Shown here: in pieces, positions 15,642 to 29,485 of the stretch | Numbering within the stretch: position 1 is the first letter of the stretch | Layout of the letters: every line of letters starts with the position of its first letter | Sequence record: LR746137 | Origin: Escherichia phage vB_EcoM_UP17 | Length of the DNA stretch: 64,000 nt | Reading direction: 5' to 3' (one strand) | Notes under the pieces: generated by a model | The model's input: only the letters and a program-made list of their open reading frames with translations | Database searches by the model: none | Told to the model about the DNA's origin: nothing | Program-made: the position numbers and the translations under genes

Positions 15642-15940
15642 TCTACAGCATCATGAGTCCTTGCAAAACGCTCCCACAACACAGCATCTACTTTAAGGAC
15701 CATACAAGGATAAATACTGTCGTTAATCATGTCAATGCTATATTTATCTACATCCTTTTCATCTTCCATAAACAGAGTAGCATATGCTTCCAAATGTTTA
15801 CGGGTGTAGTATACATCCTCTTCGGTAAGACCAACAACCAGGTAACTTGCTACAACAACAGTATTATCTTCTTGCATTTTAACTCCCCTTTGGTAGATAG
15901 AAACCATGCACTTTATCTCGATAAACAAGACGCATATCAC
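15593..15940 (-). CDS. Hypothetical protein
   Basis: 115 aa ORF; start may lie downstream of the overlap. Confidence 0.4.
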   Translation of the reverse strand: MICVLFIEIKCMVSIYQRGVKMQEDNTVVVASYLVVGLTEEDVYYTRKHLEAYATLFMEDEKDVDKYSIDMINDSIYPCMVLKVDAVLWERFARTHDAVECSAVMSQNNILGEIH

Positions 15941-16400
15941 GTTCCCAGTGTGTCCTTATATTCCGTTTCTTGAAGTATAGCGCACCTTTAGTAACATCTA
16001 AAACAGATCGCAATTCAGGAAAATGTTTCTCTAAATAAAGTAAACGCTCCGCTATTGCTTTTGCTTCCTGCCACTTATCTTTCTCTGTTACGTTAAAAGT
16101 TTTCGCATATGAGAATTGCCCTTTCTGGAACAAGACTCCTCTGACTGTGTTAGGGAAATAAGCATCATTTCTTCTGTTGATCACTACATTCCCAACGGCA
16201 TTCATTCCTTTTTTACCCAGACCGCGACCTTCTGCGTAAATTGCACAAGCTAATAGAATTTTATCATTATATTGCTTTGTACATTTGTGAACTACTTTAG
16301 CGGTTTTTACGTTTGCAGCTTCGGCTTTCGCCATAACAGGTGTAAATGTAAAAGCAGTTAAGGATAGTAACGCAACTGTTACAAAGTTTTTTATCAGCAA
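15879..16400 (-). CDS. Secreted cell wall hydrolase (SleB-like)
   Basis: N-terminal signal peptide, CAIYAEGRG...VGNVVINR motif. Confidence 0.55.
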   Translation of the reverse strand: MLIKNFVTVALLSLTAFTFTPVMAKAEAANVKTAKVVHKCTKQYNDKILLACAIYAEGRGLGKKGMNAVGNVVINRRNDAYFPNTVRGVLFQKGQFSYAKTFNVTEKDKWQEAKAIAERLLYLEKHFPELRSVLDVTKGALYFKKRNIRTHWERDMRLVYRDKVHGFYLPKGS

Positions 16401-16500: not shown

Positions 16501-17103
16501 TTATGGACATTCATACCATTCTTTTTTACCACCGAAGGCCATCACCACATCGCAAATATCCAGACCAGCTTTACCTACACCATATGCTTTCAGCTTCCAT
16601 TCCCCATCTTCACGAACCAGCGAAGCCACGTGGCAGATTGTGTTGCCAGCTACTTCAGGAGCCAGGAAGTCAAAATCCAGAATTTCCACATTGCGCTCGG
16701 AGTCGAAGATTTTAAGCATACCTTCAGAAGCATGACCAAAACGTTTCAGACCTGTATCATCATCAATGGTCAGAACAAAGGCAATCTCTTGTGCATCAGG
16801 AGAGATTTTAGCCAGAGTAATATCAATCTGCTCCATGCTGCCAGTTCCATCACGAACATCGTCACCAGCGAAGGTAGAACGTTCAGGATCAAACTTGTTA
16901 GCATAGCAAACCAGATGACGTGCAGACAGCATTTCAGGATTGCCAGCGGCATTATGACGACAAACCAGTGCACTTACATCCAGATCCAGTTTAGAATCAG
17001 ATTTCCAAGAGAATTCCAGGCGCAGTTCTTTCAGAGCCGGAGCAACTTTCTTCAGGGAAATTTTTTCGCTAGAACCTTTTTTCAGGGAAATTTTATCAGT
17101 CAT
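16501..17103 (-). CDS. terD: TerD-family protein
   Basis: 200 aa, ISLKK N-terminus, LDLDVSA, Ca-binding-like GDDVRDGTGSMEQI. Confidence 0.7.
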   Translation of the reverse strand: MTDKISLKKGSSEKISLKKVAPALKELRLEFSWKSDSKLDLDVSALVCRHNAAGNPEMLSARHLVCYANKFDPERSTFAGDDVRDGTGSMEQIDITLAKISPDAQEIAFVLTIDDDTGLKRFGHASEGMLKIFDSERNVEILDFDFLAPEVAGNTICHVASLVREDGEWKLKAYGVGKAGLDICDVVMAFGGKKEWYECP

Positions 17104-17118
17104 CTTTTGTCTCCTCTA

Positions 17119-17388
17119 TTATTTAAGTGTAATACCAGTTACAGTCAATTCTACTTCCAAAAGCTTAGATGTGTTTTGGATTGATACTAATTGTGCATGA
17201 TGGTTTAGTTCTACAGCAGAATAATCATTTTCCCCATCATCTACTTTTAAATAAACAATGATTTCACTAAGGTCTAAACCATTTTCGTCAAATGCATTTT
17301 CATAGACGAAAGTATCTCCTACATCCAAATCTTTAATGGTAAGGCATCGTTTATTTACTTTTTGCTCATCAATTTCGAAGTTTAACAC
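17119..17388 (-). CDS. Hypothetical protein, paralog of 18410-18688
   Basis: Shared DLDVGxTF...GLD...TxITLK with 18410 ORF. Confidence 0.45.
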   Translation of the reverse strand: MLNFEIDEQKVNKRCLTIKDLDVGDTFVYENAFDENGLDLSEIIVYLKVDDGENDYSAVELNHHAQLVSIQNTSKLLEVELTVTGITLK

Positions 17389-17617
17389 TTCTTCCTCCTA
17401 ATGTTATCTCCGGTTTGTATATACGAAGAATTATAGCATTTTCATTTTCTTTGTCAACCCATTCTTCATAATCGGGCCATACATGAATCTCTACTCTACT
17501 TACAATATCTTCCATTCGCACAGTCCCAATGAAATACTCTTTGAGACTGCGCATAATGAAAGCTTCTCTCTCGCGCCAATAATTTTCTACGACTTGAGAG
17601 GCAAGCTCGTCGATCAT
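17369..17617 (-). CDS. Hypothetical protein
   Basis: 82 aa ORF. Confidence 0.4.
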   Translation of the reverse strand: MIDELASQVVENYWREREAFIMRSLKEYFIGTVRMEDIVSRVEIHVWPDYEEWVDKENENAIILRIYKPEITLGGRSVKLRN

Positions 17618-18408
17618 TTTTTAGCACCTACTTTAACAACCCACTCTCCGAACTCTTCAGATAAGAGTTTGTCATAAAGCTCTGAATCTGTCAAGTCTAA
17701 ATCTTTAATGCCAATAAAACCAACATTATCATAAGCATTTGCCAGTTCTTTCAGGAAGCCAAACTTCTCATTACCAACGCCAACCATGAACCAATAAATA
17801 GGTTTATTCTTATTCTCTTCAATAAGACGACGAACAGCACTAGGATCACCATTCTCACCATCCGTTTGGAAGAATACAACACCAGGGGTAACGTCAGCAC
17901 CTGGTTCAGATACAGCTACAACCTTTTCACGCTCTACAGATACTGTTTCAGTTTTACCAAGCAGACGATTAAAGAAGCCTTTCTTTGGAGCCTCCTCTTG
18001 TACCACTTGTTTAGTGGTAATATATTTGGTAACAGTGCCAAAATACTCGTCGTAGATATCTGCCATTACAGGGGCGTAGTTTGTTCCACCTCCGATACGA
18101 ACATTACGCATACATTTACCAACATAATCATCGTAAACGTCTGCTGTTGCTGGGGTAAGCTCTTGAGAACTCGTATTGAAGGCCCACATATCAATTTGTT
18201 CATTATCGTCGAACAGCATACCAAAAGGAAGCAGTTTACCTACAAAATCACTCACTACCCCACTAGAATATAGACCATGCATACTACCAGAAATATCTAG
18301 AGCACATGCTACACGAAGAACAATCTTACCTTCATTCAGGTTCTTATTCTTTTTCAGAGAGAAAGCAAGGTTTTCTTGACGTTTTTTCAGGCTGATTTTC
18401 TCGGACAT
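17614..18408 (-). CDS. vWA-domain protein (TerY-like)
   Basis: MIDAS motif DISGSM, ISLKK N-terminus like TerD. Confidence 0.55.
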   Translation of the reverse strand: MSEKISLKKRQENLAFSLKKNKNLNEGKIVLRVACALDISGSMHGLYSSGVVSDFVGKLLPFGMLFDDNEQIDMWAFNTSSQELTPATADVYDDYVGKCMRNVRIGGGTNYAPVMADIYDEYFGTVTKYITTKQVVQEEAPKKGFFNRLLGKTETVSVEREKVVAVSEPGADVTPGVVFFQTDGENGDPSAVRRLIEENKNKPIYWFMVGVGNEKFGFLKELANAYDNVGFIGIKDLDLTDSELYDKLLSEEFGEWVVKVGAKK

Positions 18409-18409
18409 A

Positions 18410-18688
18410 TTATTTCTCCTTCTTAAGTGTAATATTGGTAACTTCTAAATCTACTTCCACCATATTTGTATCTGGTGGGATGCAATGAGTATAGCCTCGT
18501 TGTGCTAGTGATCCATTAATACAGATCGCACTGTTTGTGGAATTTTTAATGAACACCAAGTTACGGTAGGTATCCAACCCTGCGTCTTCATAGGCATCAT
18601 AATACATGAATGTGGCCCCTACGTCAAGATCTTCGAAAGCAATAGGTAAATCCTGACCTTTTTCTTCTTGAATATTGAATCTAAACAC
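18410..18688 (-). CDS. Hypothetical protein, paralog of 17119-17388 (start revised to GTG)
   Basis: GTG at 18688 sits 5 nt after GAGGAGG and removes the 74 nt overlap with upstream gene. Confidence 0.4.
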   Translation of the reverse strand: MFRFNIQEEKGQDLPIAFEDLDVGATFMYYDAYEDAGLDTYRNLVFIKNSTNSAICINGSLAQRGYTHCIPPDTNMVEVDLEVTNITLKKEK

Positions 18689-19244
18689 GCATACCTCCTC
18701 TACCAATTTTGAAGCCCAAATCGTAAGCTTCCTTAGTGATCTTTTGTAACTCACTTATAGGAAGTGTTACAAGAGGATCATCTTCTTCAATTTCCATCTT
18801 GTCATCTTCTGTTTCAATGAGAGTATTATGCACTTTGTGATAAGGGTTGTCAACACGTTTAAACTTATTCTTTTCTGTGCTGAAAAAACAATCTGGATCT
18901 TCTTCACCATCACCCCAACCTTGATTAGGATCTCCGTCAGATTGTTCTGTAGGGATTTCACCTGTAAAGTACTCTTCCAGCACCATAGCAATACCGTCCC
19001 TTGGATTTGAGGAATGCATTAAATCACAAACCTTACCCCAATCCATAGCCCATTCGAACCGTTCACGAACGCCATTTTCATCCTCTTTTCCAGAGAAAAC
19101 ACAACCATAACTATCATAGTTGCCATACATCTCTTCAATAACAACACCGTCTTTCAAAAGAAAGAGGTAGCAAGGTGATCCGTCGAAAGAAGTAGAAAGG
19201 GCAGCTTTGCCCGATTCTTTGCACAAAAAACTAAAACAACCCAT
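18681..19244 (-). CDS. Hypothetical protein
   Basis: 187 aa, acidic C-terminal half. Confidence 0.45.
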   Translation of the reverse strand: MGCFSFLCKESGKAALSTSFDGSPCYLFLLKDGVVIEEMYGNYDSYGCVFSGKEDENGVRERFEWAMDWGKVCDLMHSSNPRDGIAMVLEEYFTGEIPTEQSDGDPNQGWGDGEEDPDCFFSTEKNKFKRVDNPYHKVHNTLIETEDDKMEIEEDDPLVTLPISELQKITKEAYDLGFKIGRGGMRV

Positions 19245-19441
19245 TACAAACCCTCCTTCAGATTATCAAGAGCTACAGTGGTTTCACAAAATTCTCCATA
19301 AGCTTTATGATGTTCCAGAAAAGCTTCGGGTCCACCCCAGTCATTATCTTGTGTATTCCAGCCATCAATAAAAGCATCTTCAATGATTGTGATCAGTTCC
19401 TGTCGAGTCAACGTAATGGTATCAGGCTTTGGATTATGCAT
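19244..19441 (-). CDS. Hypothetical small protein
   Basis: 65 aa ORF. Confidence 0.4.
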   Translation of the reverse strand: MHNPKPDTITLTRQELITIIEDAFIDGWNTQDNDWGGPEAFLEHHKAYGEFCETTVALDNLKEGL

Positions 19442-19607
19442 CTTCTTCCTCCTCTAAAATATGAAACCCATAGCTACAATAGTCCTGAAAGGTTTCGTGT
19501 GCAAGATCTTCTATATCCTCTTGAGACATATCATCTTCAATTTCGATATCCACAACCTCATTGCATCCACACCAAGCAGTTTCAATATTCACCCGTAATA
19601 TTTTCAT
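19434..19607 (-). CDS. Small acidic ORF (57 aa), not in ORF track
   Basis: ATG 19607 overlaps upstream stop (TAATG), GGAGGAG SD, hand-translated codon by codon. Confidence 0.35.
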   Translation of the reverse strand: MKILRVNIETAWCGCNEVVDIEIEDDMSQEDIEDLAHETFQDYCSYGFHILEEEEDA

Positions 19608-19804
19608 TACTCCTCCTCCTCATTGAAGTCAATATCTGCAAGGAGTTGGAATTTACGGAAGTTACGACAACCTTCATAAATATAACAATCACGACAAACT
19701 GCTAGAACACTTGGGGGATATATGCCTCCCATCGGTGCGAATCGTTTTTCGTCATCATAACGGACACCAATGTCTTCATCAATTATATAGATACGGATTC
19801 TCAT
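19607..19804 (-). CDS. Small Cys-rich protein
   Basis: 65 aa ORF. Confidence 0.4.
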   Translation of the reverse strand: MRIRIYIIDEDIGVRYDDEKRFAPMGGIYPPSVLAVCRDCYIYEGCRNFRKFQLLADIDFNEEEE

Positions 19805-20913
19805 TTACCAAGCCCTCGTTTCACAGCAGCTACCATCCCGTCTTCCAGAGATTGAACTTCATTAATATAATCAACACGAGCAGCACGGGCTTCCGTATTG
19901 ATGCGGTTAGTTTCTTCCAACATCTTAACCAAGTTTTCCTGATCGTGACGCAGAGTTTCAATATCCAACACTTGACGGTTAGCCAGTGCTGCTGCTTCGA
20001 TCTGATTCTGTGTAGCAAGATCGCTACCCAGTTTAATTGCCAGGTTAAATTCATCAAGAACGTTATTCTGCGTCTCTGCTGCTTTCATTTGACGTAAGCT
20101 CTCGATATACATTGAGAAGTTAGCAGAGTAAGCAGGAATAACATTATTTACTATGTTACGCGCAGATCGCATTAAGCTTGCAGAAACTTTTTGCATACCT
20201 TGTACACGCGGTCCCATTTGGACACACAGTAGGCGCAATGCCTTTAAATCTGCAATACGAATCTCCAGAAGATCCAAAGTGTCTCGGATCACTTGTCGCT
20301 GTTCTACTGCATCTTCTGGAAGAGCAGCCAAAGCTTGTTCTTCTTTTTCATAGGTTGCTGTTAGAAGCTGCATATCTCGGTTCAAACTTGCAGCATATTG
20401 TCCAATAGCTTGATGCAGTTTTTCAAGATATACCAAGGAATCTTCTTCTTTGCGAATATCCATTTGAAGGTTCTTTACCAACTCTTCAATACGGTTATTA
20501 ACATTATCAAACTCCCCAAACAGGTCTTCTTTCATACCCATAACTTTTTTAATGAGTTTAGTAATACCTTTGCTTTGTTTAATAGAGTTTGGATCAAGTT
20601 GTTTTGCCTGTTTAATCAAAGCTGTGAGTCGTTCACTCATCTGATCGCCTTGATTACTACGTTGATGTTTTAATACCTCGGCATTCAAGGAACGCAAGGT
20701 TGTTCCTGCCTCTGCCCCAATCTCTTCGATCTCTTGTCGGGTCATAGAAGGCAAAACTGGAACGTCTTGTGGTGCCGCTGGTGCATAAACAGGACTGGCA
20801 TCTAACACGCTTGGAGCGAATACAGATTTACTTGCATCTGTTGTTGCAGCAAATACGCTCATTTCAGGCTTCTTCTGACCACCAGTAGCTGCTTTTAAAA
20901 ATGGACTTGTCAT
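19801..20913 (-). CDS. TelA-like coiled-coil protein (tentative)
   Basis: 370 aa, size and coiled-coil character fit TelA; sits with TerD/TerC. Confidence 0.4.
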   Translation of the reverse strand: MTSPFLKAATGGQKKPEMSVFAATTDASKSVFAPSVLDASPVYAPAAPQDVPVLPSMTRQEIEEIGAEAGTTLRSLNAEVLKHQRSNQGDQMSERLTALIKQAKQLDPNSIKQSKGITKLIKKVMGMKEDLFGEFDNVNNRIEELVKNLQMDIRKEEDSLVYLEKLHQAIGQYAASLNRDMQLLTATYEKEEQALAALPEDAVEQRQVIRDTLDLLEIRIADLKALRLLCVQMGPRVQGMQKVSASLMRSARNIVNNVIPAYSANFSMYIESLRQMKAAETQNNVLDEFNLAIKLGSDLATQNQIEAAALANRQVLDIETLRHDQENLVKMLEETNRINTEARAARVDYINEVQSLEDGMVAAVKRGLGK

Positions 20914-21500
20914 TCTTCATTCTCCTCTTCTGCATCTCTTATATATGGTGAAACACCGTACTCTTTAGCTACTTTAACCCAATCGTCCCATTTATACAAC
21001 CATAATTTTCCTTCGGTCCCTTCTTTATCTGATTTCAACCACATATTCGGTTGCTTACCTGGGTACATGCGATTAGGTTTACGATTATAACCTCTAACAC
21101 ATCTTGTCGCAAACCTATCTACCAGAACAAGAACATATTTATATTCGTGGTTCAACGGCTCTTTGGAAGTGGCTTTAGGATTAGCCCCTAATTCTGCTGC
21201 CAGTTTTTGCCAATGAGCACCGTGCCTACTAAACTTACCCATACAACCATCAATAGCATGAGCAATTTCGTGCTTCATTGTATCCACGATCATATCTCTT
21301 GTGGAGTTCTTATGCAAGTGCCAATTTACAACAACAATTTTATCTCGGTAGTTGCACCAACCGAAAGAGTTATTCACTTTGTTTCTAACACAAGCTTTAT
21401 ATCCTGCTTCACGTAACATGTTGTAGTAAACAGGAAAATCTTCTTTTATTTCCTGCATCACTTCCCACCACAAGAGTTGCAAGTCTCTCTCGGTATGCAT
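20910..21500 (-). CDS. SprT-like zinc metallopeptidase
   Basis: HExxH (MKHEIAHAIDG). Confidence 0.5.
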   Translation of the reverse strand: MHTERDLQLLWWEVMQEIKEDFPVYYNMLREAGYKACVRNKVNNSFGWCNYRDKIVVVNWHLHKNSTRDMIVDTMKHEIAHAIDGCMGKFSRHGAHWQKLAAELGANPKATSKEPLNHEYKYVLVLVDRFATRCVRGYNRKPNRMYPGKQPNMWLKSDKEGTEGKLWLYKWDDWVKVAKEYGVSPYIRDAEEENEE

Positions 21501-21503
21501 AAC

Positions 21504-22097
21504 TTACACCTTAAAAGCGAAATGCGTGGTCGTGGCTTCAAAATCAGGGCCAGATAAACTTGCACTGAAATCTGAAATATTTGTAATTAAAAAGCTTTTA
21601 TGCATACCTAACACAGCCACGCTTTCAATATCTTCTACTAACATTTCAATCATGTTAGAAACATGGCTGAACGTAGAGTTTTGTTTTTTGATGGTGTAGA
21701 AAGAAAGATTCCCACCTGCTATATAAGATACCTCTTCAAAATCTTTAATCGTATATTGTGTGCCATCAGTAAAGAAAATGGTAGCTTTATTAGTAGCACG
21801 TTTCTTGTTTTTTGGTCCTTTTTTACGTTTACTGCGAGTAGGCAAACCGTTTGGAAATACCGTAGCTACAAATTCTTCAGGAGAAACCTCCTTACCGAAA
21901 TCATAACCGTAAGAAACAGCGTCTATAAACTCGTCGTCTTCATTTTTAAAATAATGAAAATAGGGCCAATTTGAGAGATTATCAAGCATCTTATGCTCAT
22001 CCACAGCAGAGAACGTATCCCTCAAAGCCCGTGTGATTTGCAAAGCATTAGGCAAACTTTTAACACCTGTAATGGAAGTACGAATAGAAATTGTCAT
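21504..22097 (-). CDS. Hypothetical protein
   Basis: 197 aa ORF. Confidence 0.45.
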   Translation of the reverse strand: MTISIRTSITGVKSLPNALQITRALRDTFSAVDEHKMLDNLSNWPYFHYFKNEDDEFIDAVSYGYDFGKEVSPEEFVATVFPNGLPTRSKRKKGPKNKKRATNKATIFFTDGTQYTIKDFEEVSYIAGGNLSFYTIKKQNSTFSHVSNMIEMLVEDIESVAVLGMHKSFLITNISDFSASLSGPDFEATTTHFAFKV

Positions 22098-22111
22098 TGT
22101 TTTTCTCCTTA

Positions 22112-22549
22112 TTAACGTCGCTTGCTACGAGATGAACTCTTTTTACTTAAAGGGCTATTGTAAGATTTACGAGTTGTATAGCTACTATTTGTTTTAAAAG
22201 TTTGTCTCGGCTTTTCATAAGTTTTTATCTCTTGTTTAGGCTTACTATAAAAATTAGTTTTCGGTTTAGGTGTATTATAATGCTTATTAATAATCGTTCT
22301 GTTATCGTTATAATCCCCACTGCTACGATTACTACCGCCACTCATCATATGCCCTAACAACATACCTGTAGCAAACTCACCAACACCGCTACTACTAGAA
22401 CCGCCACCATTGTTGATAATAGTTGTATCTCCGTCAGATCCTTGTTGAGCGTATTGTTGAGGAGGTTGTTGGTATTGTGCAGGATTTGTTTCATCCTCGC
22501 AAGCTGTTAAAAAGATACAACCAATTAAAATCAGGGCTAGTTTTTTCAT
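22112..22549 (-). CDS. Lipoprotein, Gly/Ser-rich (start revised)
   Basis: MKKLALILIGCIFLTAC signal peptide with lipobox; ATG 22549. Confidence 0.5.
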   Translation of the reverse strand: MKKLALILIGCIFLTACEDETNPAQYQQPPQQYAQQGSDGDTTIINNGGGSSSSGVGEFATGMLLGHMMSGGSNRSSGDYNDNRTIINKHYNTPKPKTNFYSKPKQEIKTYEKPRQTFKTNSSYTTRKSYNSPLSKKSSSRSKRR

Positions 22550-22736
22550 ATTTGCTTTCCTCGTTTTGGCTATTAATACATCTGTGTTTGAAATCTCCAG
22601 AGAAGCAATAAAGTTGCTCTCCATCTCGGTATAAACTCACTTTACTGCCGTTGATTACGCTTGTCAATACAAAAATTACAACAAACAACCCTATTGCAAA
22701 ACAAATATTTTCAAACACAATCAACAAGTATTTCAT
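22491..22736 (-). CDS. Small membrane protein (tentative)
   Basis: 81 aa with hydrophobic helix; overlaps lipoprotein start. Confidence 0.3.
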   Translation of the reverse strand: MKYLLIVFENICFAIGLFVVIFVLTSVINGSKVSLYRDGEQLYCFSGDFKHRCINSQNEESKYEKTSPDFNWLYLFNSLRG

Positions 22737-23083
22737 TTTAAAAATACCTCATCATCAGTTTCATTATCCCAGAAGAACAAATCCCAACCATTAGGATCAT
22801 TCCACTTGGCTGCTGGAGAAGTCCAGAGTTGTTCGATATCAATATTCAAAACTTCACCGTTTCGTTTTGAAACAGCTTTAGTTAATTCCCAACGAGATAC
22901 AGGTTCTACCTCTCCTGAACCACTTCCACAACAAGCTACTACGTTAGGAGGAAGGTTAATTGGATCTTTGGTCACAATCATAACGCTTACCCCAGGGTAA
23001 ACTTTTGAAAGATAATCTGAAACGTAATCCACATCACCACATAAGTCCCAAACAAGTTCTTGAATTTCATCAAAATTGCTCAT
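22733..23083 (-). CDS. Hypothetical protein
   Basis: 116 aa ORF. Confidence 0.45.
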   Translation of the reverse strand: MSNFDEIQELVWDLCGDVDYVSDYLSKVYPGVSVMIVTKDPINLPPNVVACCGSGSGEVEPVSRWELTKAVSKRNGEVLNIDIEQLWTSPAAKWNDPNGWDLFFWDNETDDEVFLK

Positions 23084-23125
23084 AAGTCTCTCCTATAAAA
23101 TAGCCTCCCGAAGGAGGCTCATCTA

Positions 23126-24100
23126 TTAAACAGCAGCTTCTTCTTTTTCAGGGAAGATAAAGCTTGCAATAACACCAAGAGCTAATGTGCCTAGAACAAT
23201 CATCAAACTTACGTTAGGGGAAATATCATGCGGGAGGAATGACCACTTGGCATGAAGTGTTTCACCGAACGGGTGATACATAAGTTTAGCACCAACAAAC
23301 ACCAGAACCACAGCAACAGCTTTCTCTAAGTGAACCAAATATTTCACAGCAACACTTAACACAAAGAAAAGTGCACGTAAACCAAGAACAGCCATCAGCA
23401 TTGCAGAATAAACTAGCAGAGGTTCTTGTGTCACACCGATCACAGCCGGAACTGAATCAAAAGAGAAGACAATATCTGTAAGCTCAATAACAAACACACA
23501 AAGAAGAGCAGGAGTTGCATATTTAATACCATTCTTAATGGTAATGAACTTTTCACCATCCAGCGCATTGTGCACAGGCAGAACTTTACCTACTAAACGA
23601 ACAGCCCAATGCTTAGAGTAATCAATATCCTCTTCTTCGTCACCACCTTTGATGATAGCCACGGCAGACCAAGCTACAATCAAACCGAACAACACTTGGA
23701 CCGACCAATGAAGGTTAAACAAAGCGGTCCCTGCTGCAACAAAAATACCTCGGAAGACAATGGCTCCTGCAATCCCCCAAAGTAGAATTTTATGTTGGAG
23801 ATGTGTGCTCTTAATTCCAAAGCTTGCAAAAATTGCCATGAACACCATCAGGTTATCTACAGAAAGACTCTTTTCCAACACATAACCACTTAGGAAAAGC
23901 GCGGCAAACTCTTTACCATGTTCTACCCAAATGAATGCGTAATATCCTAAAGCTAAAGCAATCCAAAAAACAGACCAAAGCAAAGCAGATTTAATTCCAA
24001 TTTCTTTATTCTCTTTATGACCAAAGAAATCGATACCAATAGACAATGCCAAAATACTAATTAAAACAACTACATCAATAATTGGGAAACCGAGTTGCAT
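23126..24100 (-). CDS. terC: TerC-family integral membrane protein
   Basis: Multiple TM helices, duplicated motifs SVDNLMVF and FSFDSVPAVIGV. Confidence 0.8.
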   Translation of the reverse strand: MQLGFPIIDVVVLISILALSIGIDFFGHKENKEIGIKSALLWSVFWIALALGYYAFIWVEHGKEFAALFLSGYVLEKSLSVDNLMVFMAIFASFGIKSTHLQHKILLWGIAGAIVFRGIFVAAGTALFNLHWSVQVLFGLIVAWSAVAIIKGGDEEEDIDYSKHWAVRLVGKVLPVHNALDGEKFITIKNGIKYATPALLCVFVIELTDIVFSFDSVPAVIGVTQEPLLVYSAMLMAVLGLRALFFVLSVAVKYLVHLEKAVAVVLVFVGAKLMYHPFGETLHAKWSFLPHDISPNVSLMIVLGTLALGVIASFIFPEKEEAAV

Positions 24101-24179
24101 TCTTTTCTCCTCTCTTTGCGGGGAACTATTCCCCGCTTCATGTGATATATCTTACTCTTTTTAAGAATTATGTCAACAC

Positions 24180-24407
24180 TTATTTTGTTGAATGAGAGGA
24201 AAAGATTCCTCGTAATACCGCCAGAATAAACGAAACACAAACCACGGTCCAGAAGGTTACTGGGACAGTGATATCTGCATGACCCATAACTTCAGCAACA
24301 TAGTTGTAAGCCAGCAACAGTAACCAAGCTGGAATCAAACTAAGCATAAAAGCAATAACAAAAAAGCTTACCACTGCAACAATACCTGCAAAAACACCCA
24401 TACTCAT
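24180..24407 (-). CDS. Small membrane protein
   Basis: 75 aa, two hydrophobic helices. Confidence 0.45.
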   Translation of the reverse strand: MSMGVFAGIVAVVSFFVIAFMLSLIPAWLLLLAYNYVAEVMGHADITVPVTFWTVVCVSFILAVLRGIFSSHSTK

Positions 24408-24413
24408 CTCCTC

Positions 24414-24887
24414 TTAAAGTTTATAAATAGTCACATCGTGACCTGTTTTTACTAAAGTTTCTTCAATCATCACTTGGATGATAGCCCAATTGCCTCCAGC
24501 ATATCCAGCGCCAATCATAGGTAAGCCGATCTTACATTTTTGGTCACGGAGAAGCAAATCATTAGCCATAGCTATTAGTGCATCGTAAAGTGCATCATAG
24601 TCCAACTGACGACCTTTAGCATTGTATCCGTAACGGTATTGCCCGTATAGATTATATACCAAAGGGTCTGATTGTTCGTCTGGCACCCCTAAACTAAAAC
24701 AACCTAGTTTACTTTGATCACCAGCCATTGTGTCTAAGTCTGCTGCATATGCGTAAGGAAATGCTTGTTTGATTTGTGGGGCAATACCTGCCCCCATATT
24801 ACACATACAGTTGCAACAATGAGCAATAACAGTTACTTCACCTGCTTTAGCGGCATCAATAAGATTACCTGTTTTCATTTTAAGCAT
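24414..24887 (-). CDS. Macro-domain protein
   Basis: VIAHCCNCMCNMGAGIA matches macro-domain signature. Confidence 0.55.
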   Translation of the reverse strand: MLKMKTGNLIDAAKAGEVTVIAHCCNCMCNMGAGIAPQIKQAFPYAYAADLDTMAGDQSKLGCFSLGVPDEQSDPLVYNLYGQYRYGYNAKGRQLDYDALYDALIAMANDLLLRDQKCKIGLPMIGAGYAGGNWAIIQVMIEETLVKTGHDVTIYKL

Positions 24888-24899
24888 TTTAGCTCCTTA

Positions 24900-25727
24900 T
24901 TACAGAATGTGTTGTTTTGTGTAACGATCCAAGAATTCAAAGTTTTCAGCATACTTTGAAATTCGGTTGTAACCTTCTCCCAAACATCCGAAGAAAAGTT
25001 GCTCTACATAGTAGTGTGGCAATTGGCTAAGAATGATTTTGAAGTCTTCGTGATTTTGGCCCATAAGATACTTAATAGGACGAACAAGGCACTGTGCATC
25101 ACGTTCTTCATTAATCATTTTAACAAACGCTTCTGGTGTATTAATGTAGTTAAAATTCAGTTTAGCTTCGGTATCTGCTTGATTACCTTCATATTTTGCA
25201 AAATACAAGAAGTAAACATCATTTTTAACTTGATTTTCATCAAGGATCTCAATCAGTTTGTCTTCATGCGTTCCAGTGATATTTACATCATCAATGAATA
25301 CAAGCTTCTTATCACCCCAGAATTCTTTGTTGCAGTAGAATGTATCCCCATCAATAAGTTTCTTACGACTAGCTTTATCCAAGAAACCATAATCGTTGAT
25401 ATAGCTAACTTTACGATGAATAATGTCCAGTTCTGCTGAACGACCTTGATCATATTGTGATTGCAACATGTTAAAGTAATTAATAAAATGATCTGTCATC
25501 ATTGTTGCAGCATTATGCACATGGTTGTAAGGAGAAGGAATGATAACAAATTGTTCCCCAATATGTTTCATTGCCACTTGAGCAAAAAACTGAAGTGCCA
25601 ATTCTTTACCCATACGACGCGCGGCTTGGTTACTACCAAATTTCAATTTTGAATAATCTTGGATATCAAAAGTAGCAGTTTCCAGGTCATCAAATTTATT
25701 TGCAAAAATTTGAGTTTGATTACGCAT
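24900..25727 (-). CDS. Phosphoribosyltransferase-like protein
   Basis: PRPP-binding-like KKLVFIDDVNITGTHE. Confidence 0.45.
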   Translation of the reverse strand: MRNQTQIFANKFDDLETATFDIQDYSKLKFGSNQAARRMGKELALQFFAQVAMKHIGEQFVIIPSPYNHVHNAATMMTDHFINYFNMLQSQYDQGRSAELDIIHRKVSYINDYGFLDKASRKKLIDGDTFYCNKEFWGDKKLVFIDDVNITGTHEDKLIEILDENQVKNDVYFLYFAKYEGNQADTEAKLNFNYINTPEAFVKMINEERDAQCLVRPIKYLMGQNHEDFKIILSQLPHYYVEQLFFGCLGEGYNRISKYAENFEFLDRYTKQHIL

Positions 25728-26376
25728 TTACAATTTCTCCTCTTTTAAGTTTCTCTAGTAAGTCATTAGGGTTCTTAATATGACAGAAGTTAAATCCTAA
25801 GTCAACACATTTTCCATCATATTCTTCACTATCGCCTACGTGCAATACTTCGTGCCCTAACAGAGGGATCGGAGAATACGTGAGCGTGCGAGCAAAGAAT
25901 CGCGGATCTGGTTTACAAAGTAAAGCTTCATCCGAGAAATGGGTGAACTCAAAACAATTCCAACTATCAAACTTACAAGCACGACGCAGGATATCCCCTG
26001 ATATGAAGTTGGTATTGCTCTTAATACTCAAATCATAACGTCCCGAAAGATACAGCAAGTACATCGGCAGATCCACGGCTACGTGTGGTGGAAACTTAAG
26101 GAACCACTGTTCACACTCGAAACGAAGCTTTGCAGACTTCCAAGGTGTTATCCCAAGTTCAGAACCAAGTCTTTCCCAGGCGTATGCTGCACACTCGGCT
26201 TTGCCTTGAAGTGCTGCATTATCCAGTTCCTTTTTGATCTTCTTATAAGCTGCTCTTGCTTCCACTTCCGTAATATCTCCATATTTTGCGATAGTCCAGG
26301 CTCGCATGTCTGCGTAATTGGAGTTTGCTGTGATCAGTGTGTTCCATACATCAAAAGAGATATGTTTAATAGTCAT
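25720..26376 (-). CDS. HAD-superfamily hydrolase-like
   Basis: N-terminal FDVWNTL, C-terminal HVGDSEEYD. Confidence 0.4.
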   Translation of the reverse strand: MTIKHISFDVWNTLITANSNYADMRAWTIAKYGDITEVEARAAYKKIKKELDNAALQGKAECAAYAWERLGSELGITPWKSAKLRFECEQWFLKFPPHVAVDLPMYLLYLSGRYDLSIKSNTNFISGDILRRACKFDSWNCFEFTHFSDEALLCKPDPRFFARTLTYSPIPLLGHEVLHVGDSEEYDGKCVDLGFNFCHIKNPNDLLEKLKRGEIVNA

Positions 26377-26377
26377 A

Positions 26378-26983
26378 TTAAGCCCACCATGCGTCTAAGT
26401 TAAGATTACTGTCCACTACCACTTGTTCTATGTGGTAGCCTTTTATCTGTATCCCACTGTTCAAGAGCATATCATACGCTTCATTGAAACGCAACTTATC
26501 TTCTGCGGAATATAAGCGAGCATTATAAAATCGGTAATCAACTTCTTCAGCATTAGAAGAAATACGGAAGAAGTTTGTTTCTACTTCGGGATCACTTGCT
26601 GAAGTCTTAATGTGAACTTCTCCGTAATTTTCTTTACTTAGATCCATGAAAAGAACACAGGCAACATGTTTAAACATTCGTTCCAGTTTGTAACGAACAA
26701 CATTGAAACCTGCATTCTCAAGTTTTTCTACACACTGCAACATTAAAGTAGTGTCGAGATCGCTTTGATACTTTGTTAACATACGATCACGTTGAGACTT
26801 TGTATCCCGATGTAAATCAATTGTTGTGCATTTGGCACCAATAATCTTAGCTGCTTTCATCAACTCTTCAGAACTAACGTTAGATAAAGTAAGATGAAAA
26901 TGGGCTTTCCACACTTTTTTAGCAGGGACACCAAAAGATTTATCCCCACTATTCGGCATGTTGACTACTACACTATGTTGCAT
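26378..26983 (-). CDS. Hypothetical protein
   Basis: 201 aa, one HxTx motif. Confidence 0.45.
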   Translation of the reverse strand: MQHSVVVNMPNSGDKSFGVPAKKVWKAHFHLTLSNVSSEELMKAAKIIGAKCTTIDLHRDTKSQRDRMLTKYQSDLDTTLMLQCVEKLENAGFNVVRYKLERMFKHVACVLFMDLSKENYGEVHIKTSASDPEVETNFFRISSNAEEVDYRFYNARLYSAEDKLRFNEAYDMLLNSGIQIKGYHIEQVVVDSNLNLDAWWA

Positions 26984-27203: not shown

Positions 27204-27674
27204 TTAATCTGATTGCCAACCACTTGCCGTTTTGGTCCATAATCTTTGATTATCTGACCCTCTGAAAGGTTTTGTAGTTGGATTGTTTATTTCATACTTT
27301 CCGTCTACAATAATGTCAACAAGATTTTTAATATACAAAGGCACTTCCTCAAAAGTATATCCTGTATACACCATTATATCTTTGCTTGACCCATAAACGT
27401 CTCTAACCTTTTCTATAAGGTTTTTAACATTGTAAATATTCTGCGGATCTAATGGCTCCCCTCCTAAAATTGTTAAACCTTTTACAAACGGTCTTGACAA
27501 ATCTTTTAAAACTTGCTCTACATTTTCGTGAGTGAACGGTTTCCCATAAGAATAAGACCAGGCTTTTTGGTTAAAACAGCCACGACAACCGTGGCTACAA
27601 CCACTAACCCAGAGGGAGCACCTAACTCCCTCACCATTAATAAGATCTACAGGTTCATATCCTGCAAAATTCAA
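27204..27674 (-). CDS. nrdG: Anaerobic ribonucleotide reductase activating protein (radical SAM)
   Basis: CSHGCRGC (Cx3Cx2C) cluster, directly downstream of nrdD. Confidence 0.8.
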   Translation of the reverse strand: MNFAGYEPVDLINGEGVRCSLWVSGCSHGCRGCFNQKAWSYSYGKPFTHENVEQVLKDLSRPFVKGLTILGGEPLDPQNIYNVKNLIEKVRDVYGSSKDIMVYTGYTFEEVPLYIKNLVDIIVDGKYEINNPTTKPFRGSDNQRLWTKTASGWQSD

Positions 27675-29485
27675 AGATGTTTCTCCCTTTGCAAAACTTC
27701 CTGCATTTTACCTTTGTTGTAAGGCCGTGAATTAGGGGCAGAAAGATACCCTGATACACGTCTAACTACAGAAATAGTTTCTTCTTCATGGTTGCCACAA
27801 TCAGGACACTCAAACCCTTTAGCCGTTGCCTTAAATTCTCCATGAAAACCACACTTAAAGCATTGATCCACGGGCTGATTAATACCAAAATAGTGAATAT
27901 GTTCATAAGCGTAGTCTACTAAAGTCTCCAAAGCTTCTAAGTTATTCTTTAAGTTTGGTGTTTCGACATAACTTATGTTACCACCATTACTAATCTGTGC
28001 AAAACCTGCTTCATAATCCCATTTTTCAAAAGGATTTGTTACCAACCACACAGGTTGATGAAAAGAGTTAGTAAGATAGTCTCTTTCTACCAAACCTGGG
28101 TATTTTTCATTTAAAGCTGTTGCAAACTTATAGCACAAAGATTCTGCTGGAGTTCCATAGAGACTAAACGCCAGCTTAGATCGTTCTTTAAACACAGCAC
28201 ACACATCTTTCATATGTTGCAGAATGCTTTTACCAAGTTCCTTTTTATCTTTTTCTTCTGGATAAAGGATTTCCAAAGCTTCGGCAAGACCTACATAACC
28301 AATACTAATAGAAGCATAACCACCTTCAAACAAAACACCAATTTCATCATTGGCATTTAAACGCGCTAAAGCCCCTTCCATGAAAAGAATAGGGTTTTCA
28401 GATGCTTTGGTATGTCTGATACGGTTTACACGTAGCATGTGAGCATCGTAGGCTATCTCCATATGTTTATTAAGAAGATCGGTGAAAGATTCTCCTTTAC
28501 TTCTCGCTTCCGCAGCGATCAGAGGTAAGTTGATAGAAACTACTCCAAGGTTGAATCGTCCATCGTATTTTTCTCCTTGTTCGGTGGCATAGTACGACAA
28601 AAAGGAACGACAACCCATACTCGTAACAGTACCATCTGCTGATCCCGTAACTTCTTTGTTCAAAGGAACAGAAATAAAATCTGGATAAATACGATCAGCA
28701 CAACATGCCAAAGCTTGTTGCTTAAGGTCATAGTTAGGATCACTAGGTTTCATGTTAACACCTTCTTGTAAAAAGAAAATAACTTTAGGGAATACAGGCG
28801 TTACATGATCTTTGCCTAGACCGTTACTATGCACTTTAAGATAGTTAGCTGTAATCATTCTGCCAAAAACAGAGGTATCCAGACCCATACTGATTGTAAT
28901 AAAAGGAGATTGTCCATTAACACTCATTAAAGTATTAACCTGATACAAGAGAGTTTGCATAGCATCATATACATCTTGTTCGGTCATTTCTAGGGCTTCT
29001 TTCCTTGCATAACAACCGTAGCGACGTTTGGTTATCTCCATGTTTTTAAGGAAACTAGCTTCAACATAAGGACTAAGACCTTTATCAATGTGCGCACACG
29101 TCTGACCTCCATACTGACTGGAGGCAACAGCTTGGATAATTTGAGTTAGCACTGTGGTAGCTACCCCAATAGATTTTGGTTTTTCTATCTGTGCGGCTCC
29201 GATCTTAAAACCATTCTCTAACATATCTTGATAATTAACAAGACAACAGTTTGTAAGAGGAGAGAGTAGATAATCCAAGTCGTGAATATGTCCAAAACCT
29301 TCTGTATGCCACTCTGACAAGTTTTTTGGCAGTATCTGTGTCATTGCCATATGTTTGCTTAAAATCCCCGCCAAGAGATCCCTATGCGTGTTAACGAGGT
29401 GGGAAGGTTTGTTTGCATTCTCTCTAGTGTATGTTTCTGAAGTGCGATCTAAAAAAGAAAAAACATCTTGGTACAAATCTTTCAT
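27671..29485 (-). CDS. nrdD: Anaerobic ribonucleoside-triphosphate reductase
   Basis: 604 aa, C-terminal Zn ribbon CFKC...CPDC, glycyl-radical RVSGY. Confidence 0.85.
   Translation of the reverse strand: MKDLYQDVFSFLDRTSETYTRENANKPSHLVNTHRDLLAGILSKHMAMTQILPKNLSEWHTEGFGHIHDLDYLLSPLTNCCLVNYQDMLENGFKIGAAQIEKPKSIGVATTVLTQIIQAVASSQYGGQTCAHIDKGLSPYVEASFLKNMEITKRRYGCYARKEALEMTEQDVYDAMQTLLYQVNTLMSVNGQSPFITISMGLDTSVFGRMITANYLKVHSNGLGKDHVTPVFPKVIFFLQEGVNMKPSDPNYDLKQQALACCADRIYPDFISVPLNKEVTGSADGTVTSMGCRSFLSYYATEQGEKYDGRFNLGVVSINLPLIAAEARSKGESFTDLLNKHMEIAYDAHMLRVNRIRHTKASENPILFMEGALARLNANDEIGVLFEGGYASISIGYVGLAEALEILYPEEKDKKELGKSILQHMKDVCAVFKERSKLAFSLYGTPAESLCYKFATALNEKYPGLVERDYLTNSFHQPVWLVTNPFEKWDYEAGFAQISNGGNISYVETPNLKNNLEALETLVDYAYEHIHYFGINQPVDQCFKCGFHGEFKATAKGFECPDCGNHEEETISVVRRVSGYLSAPNSRPYNKGKMQEVLQREKHL

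Follow-up and report, generated by a model that had tools for sequence, protein, structure and literature searches.

A probable reduced Ter module conserved in phAPEC8- and phi92-type phages

The region between positions 16501 and 26983 of a 64 kb stretch of Escherichia phage vB_EcoM_UP17 (LR746137; the whole stretch is referred to as the window) very probably represents a conserved phage Ter module, which the phAPEC8/phi92-type myoviruses (Stephanstirmvirinae) share and which is met again in many large phages. By its sequence, UP17 is a virulent, phAPEC8-like E. coli phage of the genus Phapecoctavirus. A first-pass annotation, made from the DNA letters without database searches, had described this region as a single Ter-like module of co-directional genes next to the replication genes, and had tentatively suggested that it handles nucleotide or metal/membrane stress during infection. 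Indeed, all real genes of the region lie on the minus strand, and every family that had been named was recovered. In a Pfam profile search judged by curated cut-offs, TerD, vWA, TelA, SprT-like, TerC, Macro and PRTase_3 (phosphoribosyltransferase, PRTase) all scored above threshold, while the HAD-like hydrolase was identified by its motifs and by NCBIfam, PHROG and PDB (2om6) matches. The DISGSM motif read in the vWA protein, which corresponds to a DxSxS motif of the metal ion-dependent adhesion site (MIDAS) type, and the HExxH motif of the SprT-like open reading frame (ORF), here HEIAH, are both present in the sequence. The proximity to replication genes holds roughly: the immediate upstream neighbours of the region encode NrdG and NrdD, the anaerobic (class III) ribonucleotide reductase.

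TerD and TerC, on whose assignment the first-pass annotation had made its proposal depend, were both clearly recognized by profile (98.9 and 138.3 bits). Compared with Ter systems in the sense of Anantharaman, Iyer and Aravind 2012 and with the classical terZABCDEF locus, as these are represented in citing papers and Pfam names, the region encodes a TerD domain, a ter-operon-type TerC and the sub-membrane partners TelA and a TerF/TerY-type vWA protein. TerC belongs to the NCBIfam TerC/Alx subfamily TIGR03718 (319.9 bits, cut-off 246.4). With 47% identity over its full length to TerC of a plasmid ter operon and 34% to E. coli Alx, it is assigned to the ter-operon type, closer to ter TerC than to Alx. 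Phage TerD matches the structure of Klebsiella TerD (PDB 2kxt, 1.5e-15) and is ~31% identical to plasmid TerE/TerD. TerD, TerC and PRTase_3 are rare families, each being present in 145-174 of the 50,697 phage records (~0.3%). Since families this rare stand together here and in the same lineages, a chance co-occurrence can be excluded. A recent capture of terC from an E. coli host was considered and rejected, as blastn with the phage gene gave no match in any of the 5,426 complete E. coli genomes searched and protein identity is only 34-47%.

Further support for a conserved module is provided by related phages. The 10.5 kb region is 96-99% identical in 61 GenBank Phapecoctavirus phages, including phAPEC8, ESCO5, ESCO13 and anhysbys. 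In some relatives the genes already carry the labels 'tellurite resistance', 'VWA domain-containing', 'SprT-like', 'putative stress protein', 'TerD family protein', 'phosphoribosyltransferase' and 'HAD hydrolase'. In phi92, which belongs to the sister genus Justusliebigvirus, the order is nrdD-nrdG ... HAD-PRTase-Macro ... TerC ... TelA ... vWA-TerD ... lysin. We count the retention of this order as evidence for a conserved phage Ter module; PRTase of phi92 is only 65% and its TerC 71% identical to those of the window.

To see which genes travel together, 26 further PRTase_3-bearing loci were compared with the window, taken from GenBank phages (L001, L002, L003, L025, L026), IMG/VR contigs (L009-L024), metagenome contigs (L004, L005, L029-L031) and rhizobial plasmids (L006, L007). 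All ORFs of L001-L026 were searched by jackhmmer profiles seeded with the window proteins; L029-L031 were assessed from Pfam gene tables computed beforehand and from a single BLASTP comparison. HAD and PRTase_3 form an inseparable gene pair. In 26/26 loci the HAD gene is the upstream member of the pair; in 25 the two genes are directly adjacent, and in the remaining one (L030) a zinc-finger ORF is inserted between them. Among the phage and viral loci outside the phAPEC8/phi92 group (n = 19), eight contain TerD, vWA, TelA and/or TerC within 10 kb of the pair (L004, L005, L014, L018, L019, L021, L022 and L030). The arrangements differ and include TerC-x-TerD-x-vWA-HAD-PRT, TelA-vWA ... HAD-PRT-TerD and TelA-HAD-PRT-vWA. 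This repeated juxtaposition of rare families in varying orders argues for a functional linkage rather than inherited synteny. In the compact modules from metagenomes, TerC and TerD are separated by proteins of 389-402 aa that may or may not be divergent TelA (hhalign probability 24%).

The bacterial counterpart used for comparison was the ter locus of Klebsiella plasmid pRJA166a (L008; IncHI2 R478-type terZABCDEF). It encodes TerZ, TerA, TerB, TerC, TerD, TerE, a TerF disrupted by an insertion sequence, TerW and DUF4236, as well as C-C_Bond_Lyase, StiP+PELOTA_1, PRTase_2+TRSP, ATPgrasp_Ter and a PF12710 HAD protein. When these proteins were searched by phmmer against all stop-to-stop ORFs of the 64 kb window, the sole matches were TerC (1e-88) and the one TerD gene, the latter being hit by plasmid TerZ, TerD and TerE alike. 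TerA, TerB, TerW, ATP-grasp, C-C lyase, StiP and PRTase_2 were not detectable in the window by this search, and a Pfam scan of 20 ORFs of the region also gave no TerB. The two loci have in common TerC, the TerD domain, a TerF-type vWA and a PRTase and HAD linked to membrane genes. Unlike the plasmid locus with its five TerD-domain genes, the phage has one; it also has TelA, and there is no TerD domain fused to the vWA protein. Its enzymatic arm consists of PRTase_3 and a different HAD subfamily, whereas enterobacterial ter loci use PRTase_2/StiP/HAD. The phage genes are moreover spread over at least three predicted transcription units with ~12 small ORFs between them. On this comparison, the phage set is a genuinely reduced Ter system with other enzyme families, and no recent copy of a host or plasmid operon. 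The proposal of a condensed bacterial ter locus thus holds for TerD, TerC, vWA and TelA. It holds only in part for the linked PRTase and HAD, which belong to families other than those of the bacterial loci, and not for SprT and Macro, which are lineage-specific.

The PRTase_3 protein possesses the phosphoribosyl pyrophosphate (PRPP)-binding loop and the fold of a type I phosphoribosyltransferase. For the HAD protein the Pfam score (21.2 bits) is under the cut-off of 26.4, and it was assigned by HAD-IA NCBIfam models, by PHROG 14393 'hydrolase' (3e-117) and by Pyrococcus PH0253 (PDB 2om6), with which it shares the motif FDVWNTL. Conserved in 25 homologues are Asp as nucleophile, Ser/Thr in motif II, Lys in motif III and Asp in motif IV. 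A function as phosphatase is plausible, not certain.

Elsewhere the pair was observed in other surroundings. In L003 (XaC1), L029 and L031, which are T4-like or jumbo contigs, a DUF2828+DUF7788 protein of 467-531 aa takes the place of the Ter genes beside it, and the other neighbours are of the RNA-repair type (RNA ligase, CCA-adding enzyme, 2H-SAK, PTH2, Nudix and YqeY). Genes of the NAD-salvage type occur near the pair in L005 (PnuC and AAA_28) and in L026, Rhizobium phage TM2_3B (nicotinamide mononucleotide adenylyltransferase/Nudix).

Promoters and terminators were called solely by their match to consensus sequences. The region is divided by terminator-like hairpins and sigma-70-like promoters (Table 1), which suggests at least three transcription units read by host polymerase. 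A weaker hairpin is located 3' of terD, where a terminator is annotated in phage ASO2A. Thus, the single module described at first is upheld in that the Ter families occur together, but it is not predicted to be one operon. In the leader of terC (24101-24148, minus strand) we noticed a GC-rich hairpin, GCGGGGAATAGTTCCCCGC, which is not followed by a T-run. It is annotated as a terminator in ASO2A and could equally be a stabilising or regulatory 5' stem.

As a whole, the locus is best explained as a minimal, phage-adapted Ter system combined with an envelope-shielding mechanism, an explanation with about an even chance of being right. The role itself, exclusion of superinfecting phages and protection of the envelope against them and against pore-forming toxins, is proposed tentatively by analogy with bacterial ter phenotypes, and we put it somewhat below even. 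It is favoured because of these phenotypes and because the host-type promoters appear to be early. As summarized in PMC12054061 with reference to Whelan 1995, bacterial terZ, terC and terD are required for phage inhibition and colicin resistance. Deletion of Klebsiella terC leads to larger plaques and to lower Zn and Mn tolerance (PMC12054061). In the phage, the Ter genes would be transcribed from host-type promoters, apparently early. TerC would insert into the inner membrane, and TerD, TelA and the vWA protein would assemble beneath it. The PRTase may couple an unspecified base to PRPP, and the HAD protein may dephosphorylate the product to a nucleoside-like compound, which would serve as ligand of the TerC/TerD/TelA/vWA membrane complex. 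This complex would then change the infected cell's envelope and ion properties and thereby shut out superinfecting phages as well as pore-forming toxins.

Several observations weigh against this explanation. TerB and the TerD paralogues TerZ, TerA and TerE are absent from the window, although terZ is needed for the bacterial phenotypes, and the phage TerD retains only part of the acidic Ca-binding loop seen in its Klebsiella counterpart. The HAD/PRTase pair is predicted to be cotranscribed with nrdDG and separately from the TerD, TelA and vWA genes. No Ter gene lies near the pair in 11 of the 19 distant phage loci or on the two rhizobial plasmids, and the pair can evidently work in non-Ter contexts too. 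By fold, the PRTase comes closest to ComF, which makes the step to a nucleoside product weak. The label of the HAD protein as phosphatase is likewise less certain because the general acid at Asp+2 of motif I is replaced; among the 25 homologues, L019 has Tyr at this position and all others have Trp.

The division into transcription units also bears on a different reading, in which three functions are merely juxtaposed: a nucleotide or NAD/ADP-ribose set transcribed together with nrdDG (the 201-aa ORF, HAD, PRTase and Macro, with Macro as an independent, ADP-ribose-removing counter-defence protein), terC under its own promoter, and a TelA/vWA/TerD unit. Terminator-like hairpins and promoters do part these three units, the HAD/PRTase pair stands alone on the large Rhizobium and Sinorhizobium plasmids, and elsewhere it adjoins RNA ligase, CCA-adding enzyme, NadM-type and PnuC genes that point to RNA repair or NAD salvage. 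Phage-encoded orphan DarG-like enzymes are moreover a known form of counter-defence. However, the pair abuts a vWA, TelA or TerD gene in seven of the distant loci (all those named above except L030), and the Macro protein lacks the catalytic Lys of TARG1/DarG. We consider this reading unlikely. A role in metal homeostasis appears less likely still. TerC would export Mn/Zn (or Ca) while TerD and vWA bind metal, and thereby levels would be tuned for phage enzymes such as ribonucleotide reductase. TerC indeed falls into the TerC/Alx metal-homeostasis subfamily, and according to its annotation E. coli Alx exports Mn2+. The vWA protein retains its MIDAS-type motif, and TerC occurs without companions in phages of Proteus, Vibrio, Aeromonas and Pectobacterium. 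In Klebsiella, part of the resistance to Zn and Mn is owed to terC (PMC12054061). This role would leave TelA and the HAD/PRTase pair unexplained. A Mn riboswitch upstream of terC was looked for and not found; a search of the whole window against Rfam gave no match to it or to any other known RNA. The adjacent reductase is of class III (NrdD/NrdG), which is not known to be manganese-dependent.

A lysin gene next to terD raises the question of lysis. The Ter proteins might safeguard lysis timing and membrane energisation, keeping the inner membrane intact and energised so that a Sec-exported, SleB-type endolysin does not become active early; equally, they might blunt host abortive-infection effectors that kill via membrane pores. 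We judge both forms improbable. They are consistent with the position of the Hydrolase_2 lysin, which has a Sec-type signal peptide (MLIKNFVTVALLSLTAFTFTPVMAKAEA) and lies directly downstream of TerD, with homologous lysins beside the Ter genes of phi92, L010, L012, L021 and L030, with a lipoprotein and several small, hydrophobic, membrane-type ORFs interleaved with the Ter genes, and with the resistance to pore-forming colicins that bacterial ter confers. The adjacency is perhaps merely inherited, since all those contigs are ~145-155 kb in size and myovirus-like, and there is no lysin near the compact Ter modules of the jumbo-phage contigs L004, L005 and L022. In a related proposal to which we assign a similarly small probability, HAD-PRTase_3 would be a mobile two-gene cassette making a nucleoside-like signal and, in this phage group, wired to a minimal TerC/TerD/TelA/vWA complex that keeps the membrane energised, thus serving counter-defence and lysis timing and not classical superinfection exclusion. 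If true, premature action of the SleB-type endolysin would be prevented and pore-forming abortive-infection effectors would be blunted.

Envelope shielding by phage Ter genes has been proposed before. Ter clusters were described in Acinetobacter jumbo phage ME3 and Caulobacter jumbo phages together with the superinfection idea (Iyer et al. 2021, PMC7824862). Four tellurite-resistance genes were reported with the same rationale for the Klebsiella phage ZCKP1 (2018, PMC6141743), and terC, terF-vWA, two terD and telA for the Klebsiella phage phiKp34, again with the superinfection idea (bioRxiv 2021.03.02.433402). In phi92, gp172, gp173 and gp178 were flagged already in 2015. All of these clusters, including phi92 gp172/173/178/182, contain the same TerC, TerD, TerF-type vWA and TelA families in a similar setting of large virulent phages; the fuller ones carry a PRTase and HAD as well, the proposed role (superinfection and colicin protection) is the same, and phi92 has the same Ter gene order. 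There is no substantial difference to the window, which is a phAPEC8-type representative. The novelty that the first-pass annotation implied is therefore not warranted: the gene set is annotated in dozens of relatives and in the papers above, and the finding is real, already known, and as a phage Ter module not itself a discovery. What is added here is the separation of the conserved parts (HAD-PRTase_3, TerD, vWA, TelA and TerC) from the lineage-specific SprT, Macro, 201-aa ORF and duplicated small ORFs, and an explicit list of the parts missing compared to bacterial ter loci. With one TerD, TerC, TelA, vWA and a two-enzyme arm in an easily grown virulent E. coli phage, such a minimal Ter set would be a convenient model to ask which parts suffice and what the PRTase and HAD make; the biochemistry of Ter has been unclear since the 1970s. 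The relevance for phage therapy is slight: annotation pipelines flag 'tellurite resistance' homologues, which are not known to transfer resistance.

Table 1. Predicted features of the Ter region and its surroundings in the window
Feature	Position	Strand	Length	Evidence and remarks
SleB-type cell-wall hydrolase, annotated endolysin	15879-16400	-		Pfam Hydrolase_2; directly downstream of TerD
TerD-domain protein	16501..17103	-	200 aa	Pfam TerD 98.9 bits (cut-off 25.3); single copy
Small ORF, paralogue A of phrog_11278	17119..17388	-	89 aa	PHROG 7e-45; directly upstream of TerD
Sigma-70 promoter-like site	17457-17430	-		TTGACA-16-TATAAT, 12/12, with TG; inside 82-aa ORF 17369-17617; upstream of paralogue A and TerD
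Stand-alone vWA protein, TerF C-terminal type	17614..18408	-	264 aa	Pfam vWA-TerF-like 130 bits; PHROG 5359
Small ORF, paralogue B of phrog_11278	18410..18754	-		Directly upstream of vWA
187-aa ORF, phrog_14928	18681..19244	-	187 aa	Stays beside vWA gene in phi92-type phages; no Pfam match
Sigma-70 promoter-like site	18853-18825	-		11/12; precedes paralogue B, then vWA
TelA-family protein	19801..20913	-	370 aa	Pfam TelA 115.6 bits; PHROG 5890 'tellurite resistance' 2.5e-139
SprT-like HExxH metalloprotease	20910..21500	-	196 aa	HEIAH; Pfam 36.7 bits
Predicted lipoprotein	22112..22624	-		Likely start M26 (near 22549) giving MKKLALILIGCIFLTAC; lipobox LTAC
Terminator-like hairpin	23119-23102	-		Directly after terC; rho-independent terminator annotated there in phage ASO2A
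TerC integral membrane protein	23126..24100	-	324 aa	Pfam 138.3 bits
Sigma-70-like promoter	24176-24149	-		TTGACA-16-TAAGAT; upstream of TerC; promoter annotated there in ASO2A
75-aa ORF, phrog_16065	24180..24407	-	75 aa	Two hydrophobic, membrane-spanning-looking stretches; between Macro and TerC
Macro domain protein, SCO6735/BT1257/TARG1 class	24414..24887	-	157 aa	Pfam 22.4 bits (cut-off 22, borderline)
PRTase_3, ComF-like type I phosphoribosyltransferase	24900..25727	-	275 aa	Pfam 142.5 bits; invariant DDVxITGTHE PRPP loop
HAD-fold hydrolase	25720..26376	-	218 aa	Motif I D-x-W-N-T; gene overlaps PRTase start
201-aa ORF, phrog_22504	26378..26983	-	201 aa	Lineage-restricted
Terminator-like hairpin	29580-29560	-		Upstream of nrdD; annotated in ASO2A

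SprT, Macro and the 201-aa ORF are, as far as the compared loci indicate, lineage-added neighbours and not core Ter parts. By jackhmmer, SprT is found only in phAPEC8-like loci (window, L001, L011 and L012) and is missing from phi92 and all distant loci. Macro next to PRTase is restricted to the whole phAPEC8/phi92 group, and the 201-aa ORF to phAPEC8-like loci and two close relatives, being absent from phi92-type and distant loci. The Macro protein is closest to Streptomyces SCO6735 (PDB 5e3b, 3.5e-12) and Bacteroides BT1257, followed by TARG1 (3e-6) and Thermus DarG (1e-5). It has the fold and the ADP-ribose-binding motifs in common with the TARG1, DarG and SCO6735 macrodomains. A PADLOC DarG profile matched with 4e-10, covering only the first 144 of its 329 positions. 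In the alignment, TARG1 Lys84 is replaced by Gln, as it is in SCO6735 and BT1257, and Asp125 by Ala; in contrast to DarG, the 157-aa protein has no DarT-binding C-terminal domain. The idea that Macro mimics DarG against DarT was therefore downgraded, as the catalytic Lys and Asp are not kept and SCO6735/BT1257 are its nearest kin.

The 201-aa ORF gave no match in Pfam and PDB sequence searches, whereas two PADLOC 'AbiEi' profiles matched nearly its full length (3.6e-13). Its AlphaFold2 model consists of two ferredoxin-like halves in tandem, with no significant PDB neighbour, and a likeness to characterised AbiEi antitoxins was found neither in sequence nor in fold. Invariant residues include H28, H30, T32, E122, H124, K126, R151, F152, Y153, N154, R156 and a C-terminal WW.

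The ~12 small ORFs interspersed in the region have no significant Pfam match and belong to PHROGs without assigned function. Two of them, located before TerD and vWA, are paralogues (33% identity, E 5e-13); phi92 has a single phrog_11278 copy, before vWA. The true start of paralogue B is likely a GTG near 18685, behind a GAGGAGG ribosome-binding site. The predicted lipoprotein is retained inside the module in phi92-type phages (jackhmmer), and phi92 gp180 has an annotated signal peptide. Its start is overlapped by an 81-aa ORF (22491-22736, minus strand) with a hydrophobic, membrane-type N-terminus. This overlap recalls a spanin gene pair, although sizes and composition are atypical.

Two further observations concern the neighbouring nrdD and the database records. 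In the window, nrdD (27671-29485, minus strand) is one intact ORF of 604 aa, while in phi92 (L002, 5218-7296) it is annotated as two joined pieces, 'spliced variant', which suggests an intervening sequence there that is missing from the window phage. Four GenBank records of 'Campylobacter phages', MG065650, MG065656, MG065689 and MG065645 (B15, C3, A110a and A145), resemble E. coli phages. B15 is 98% identical to E. coli Phapecoctavirus, and C3, A110a and A145 share proteins with phi92-type E. coli phages; Campylobacter as their host looks doubtful.

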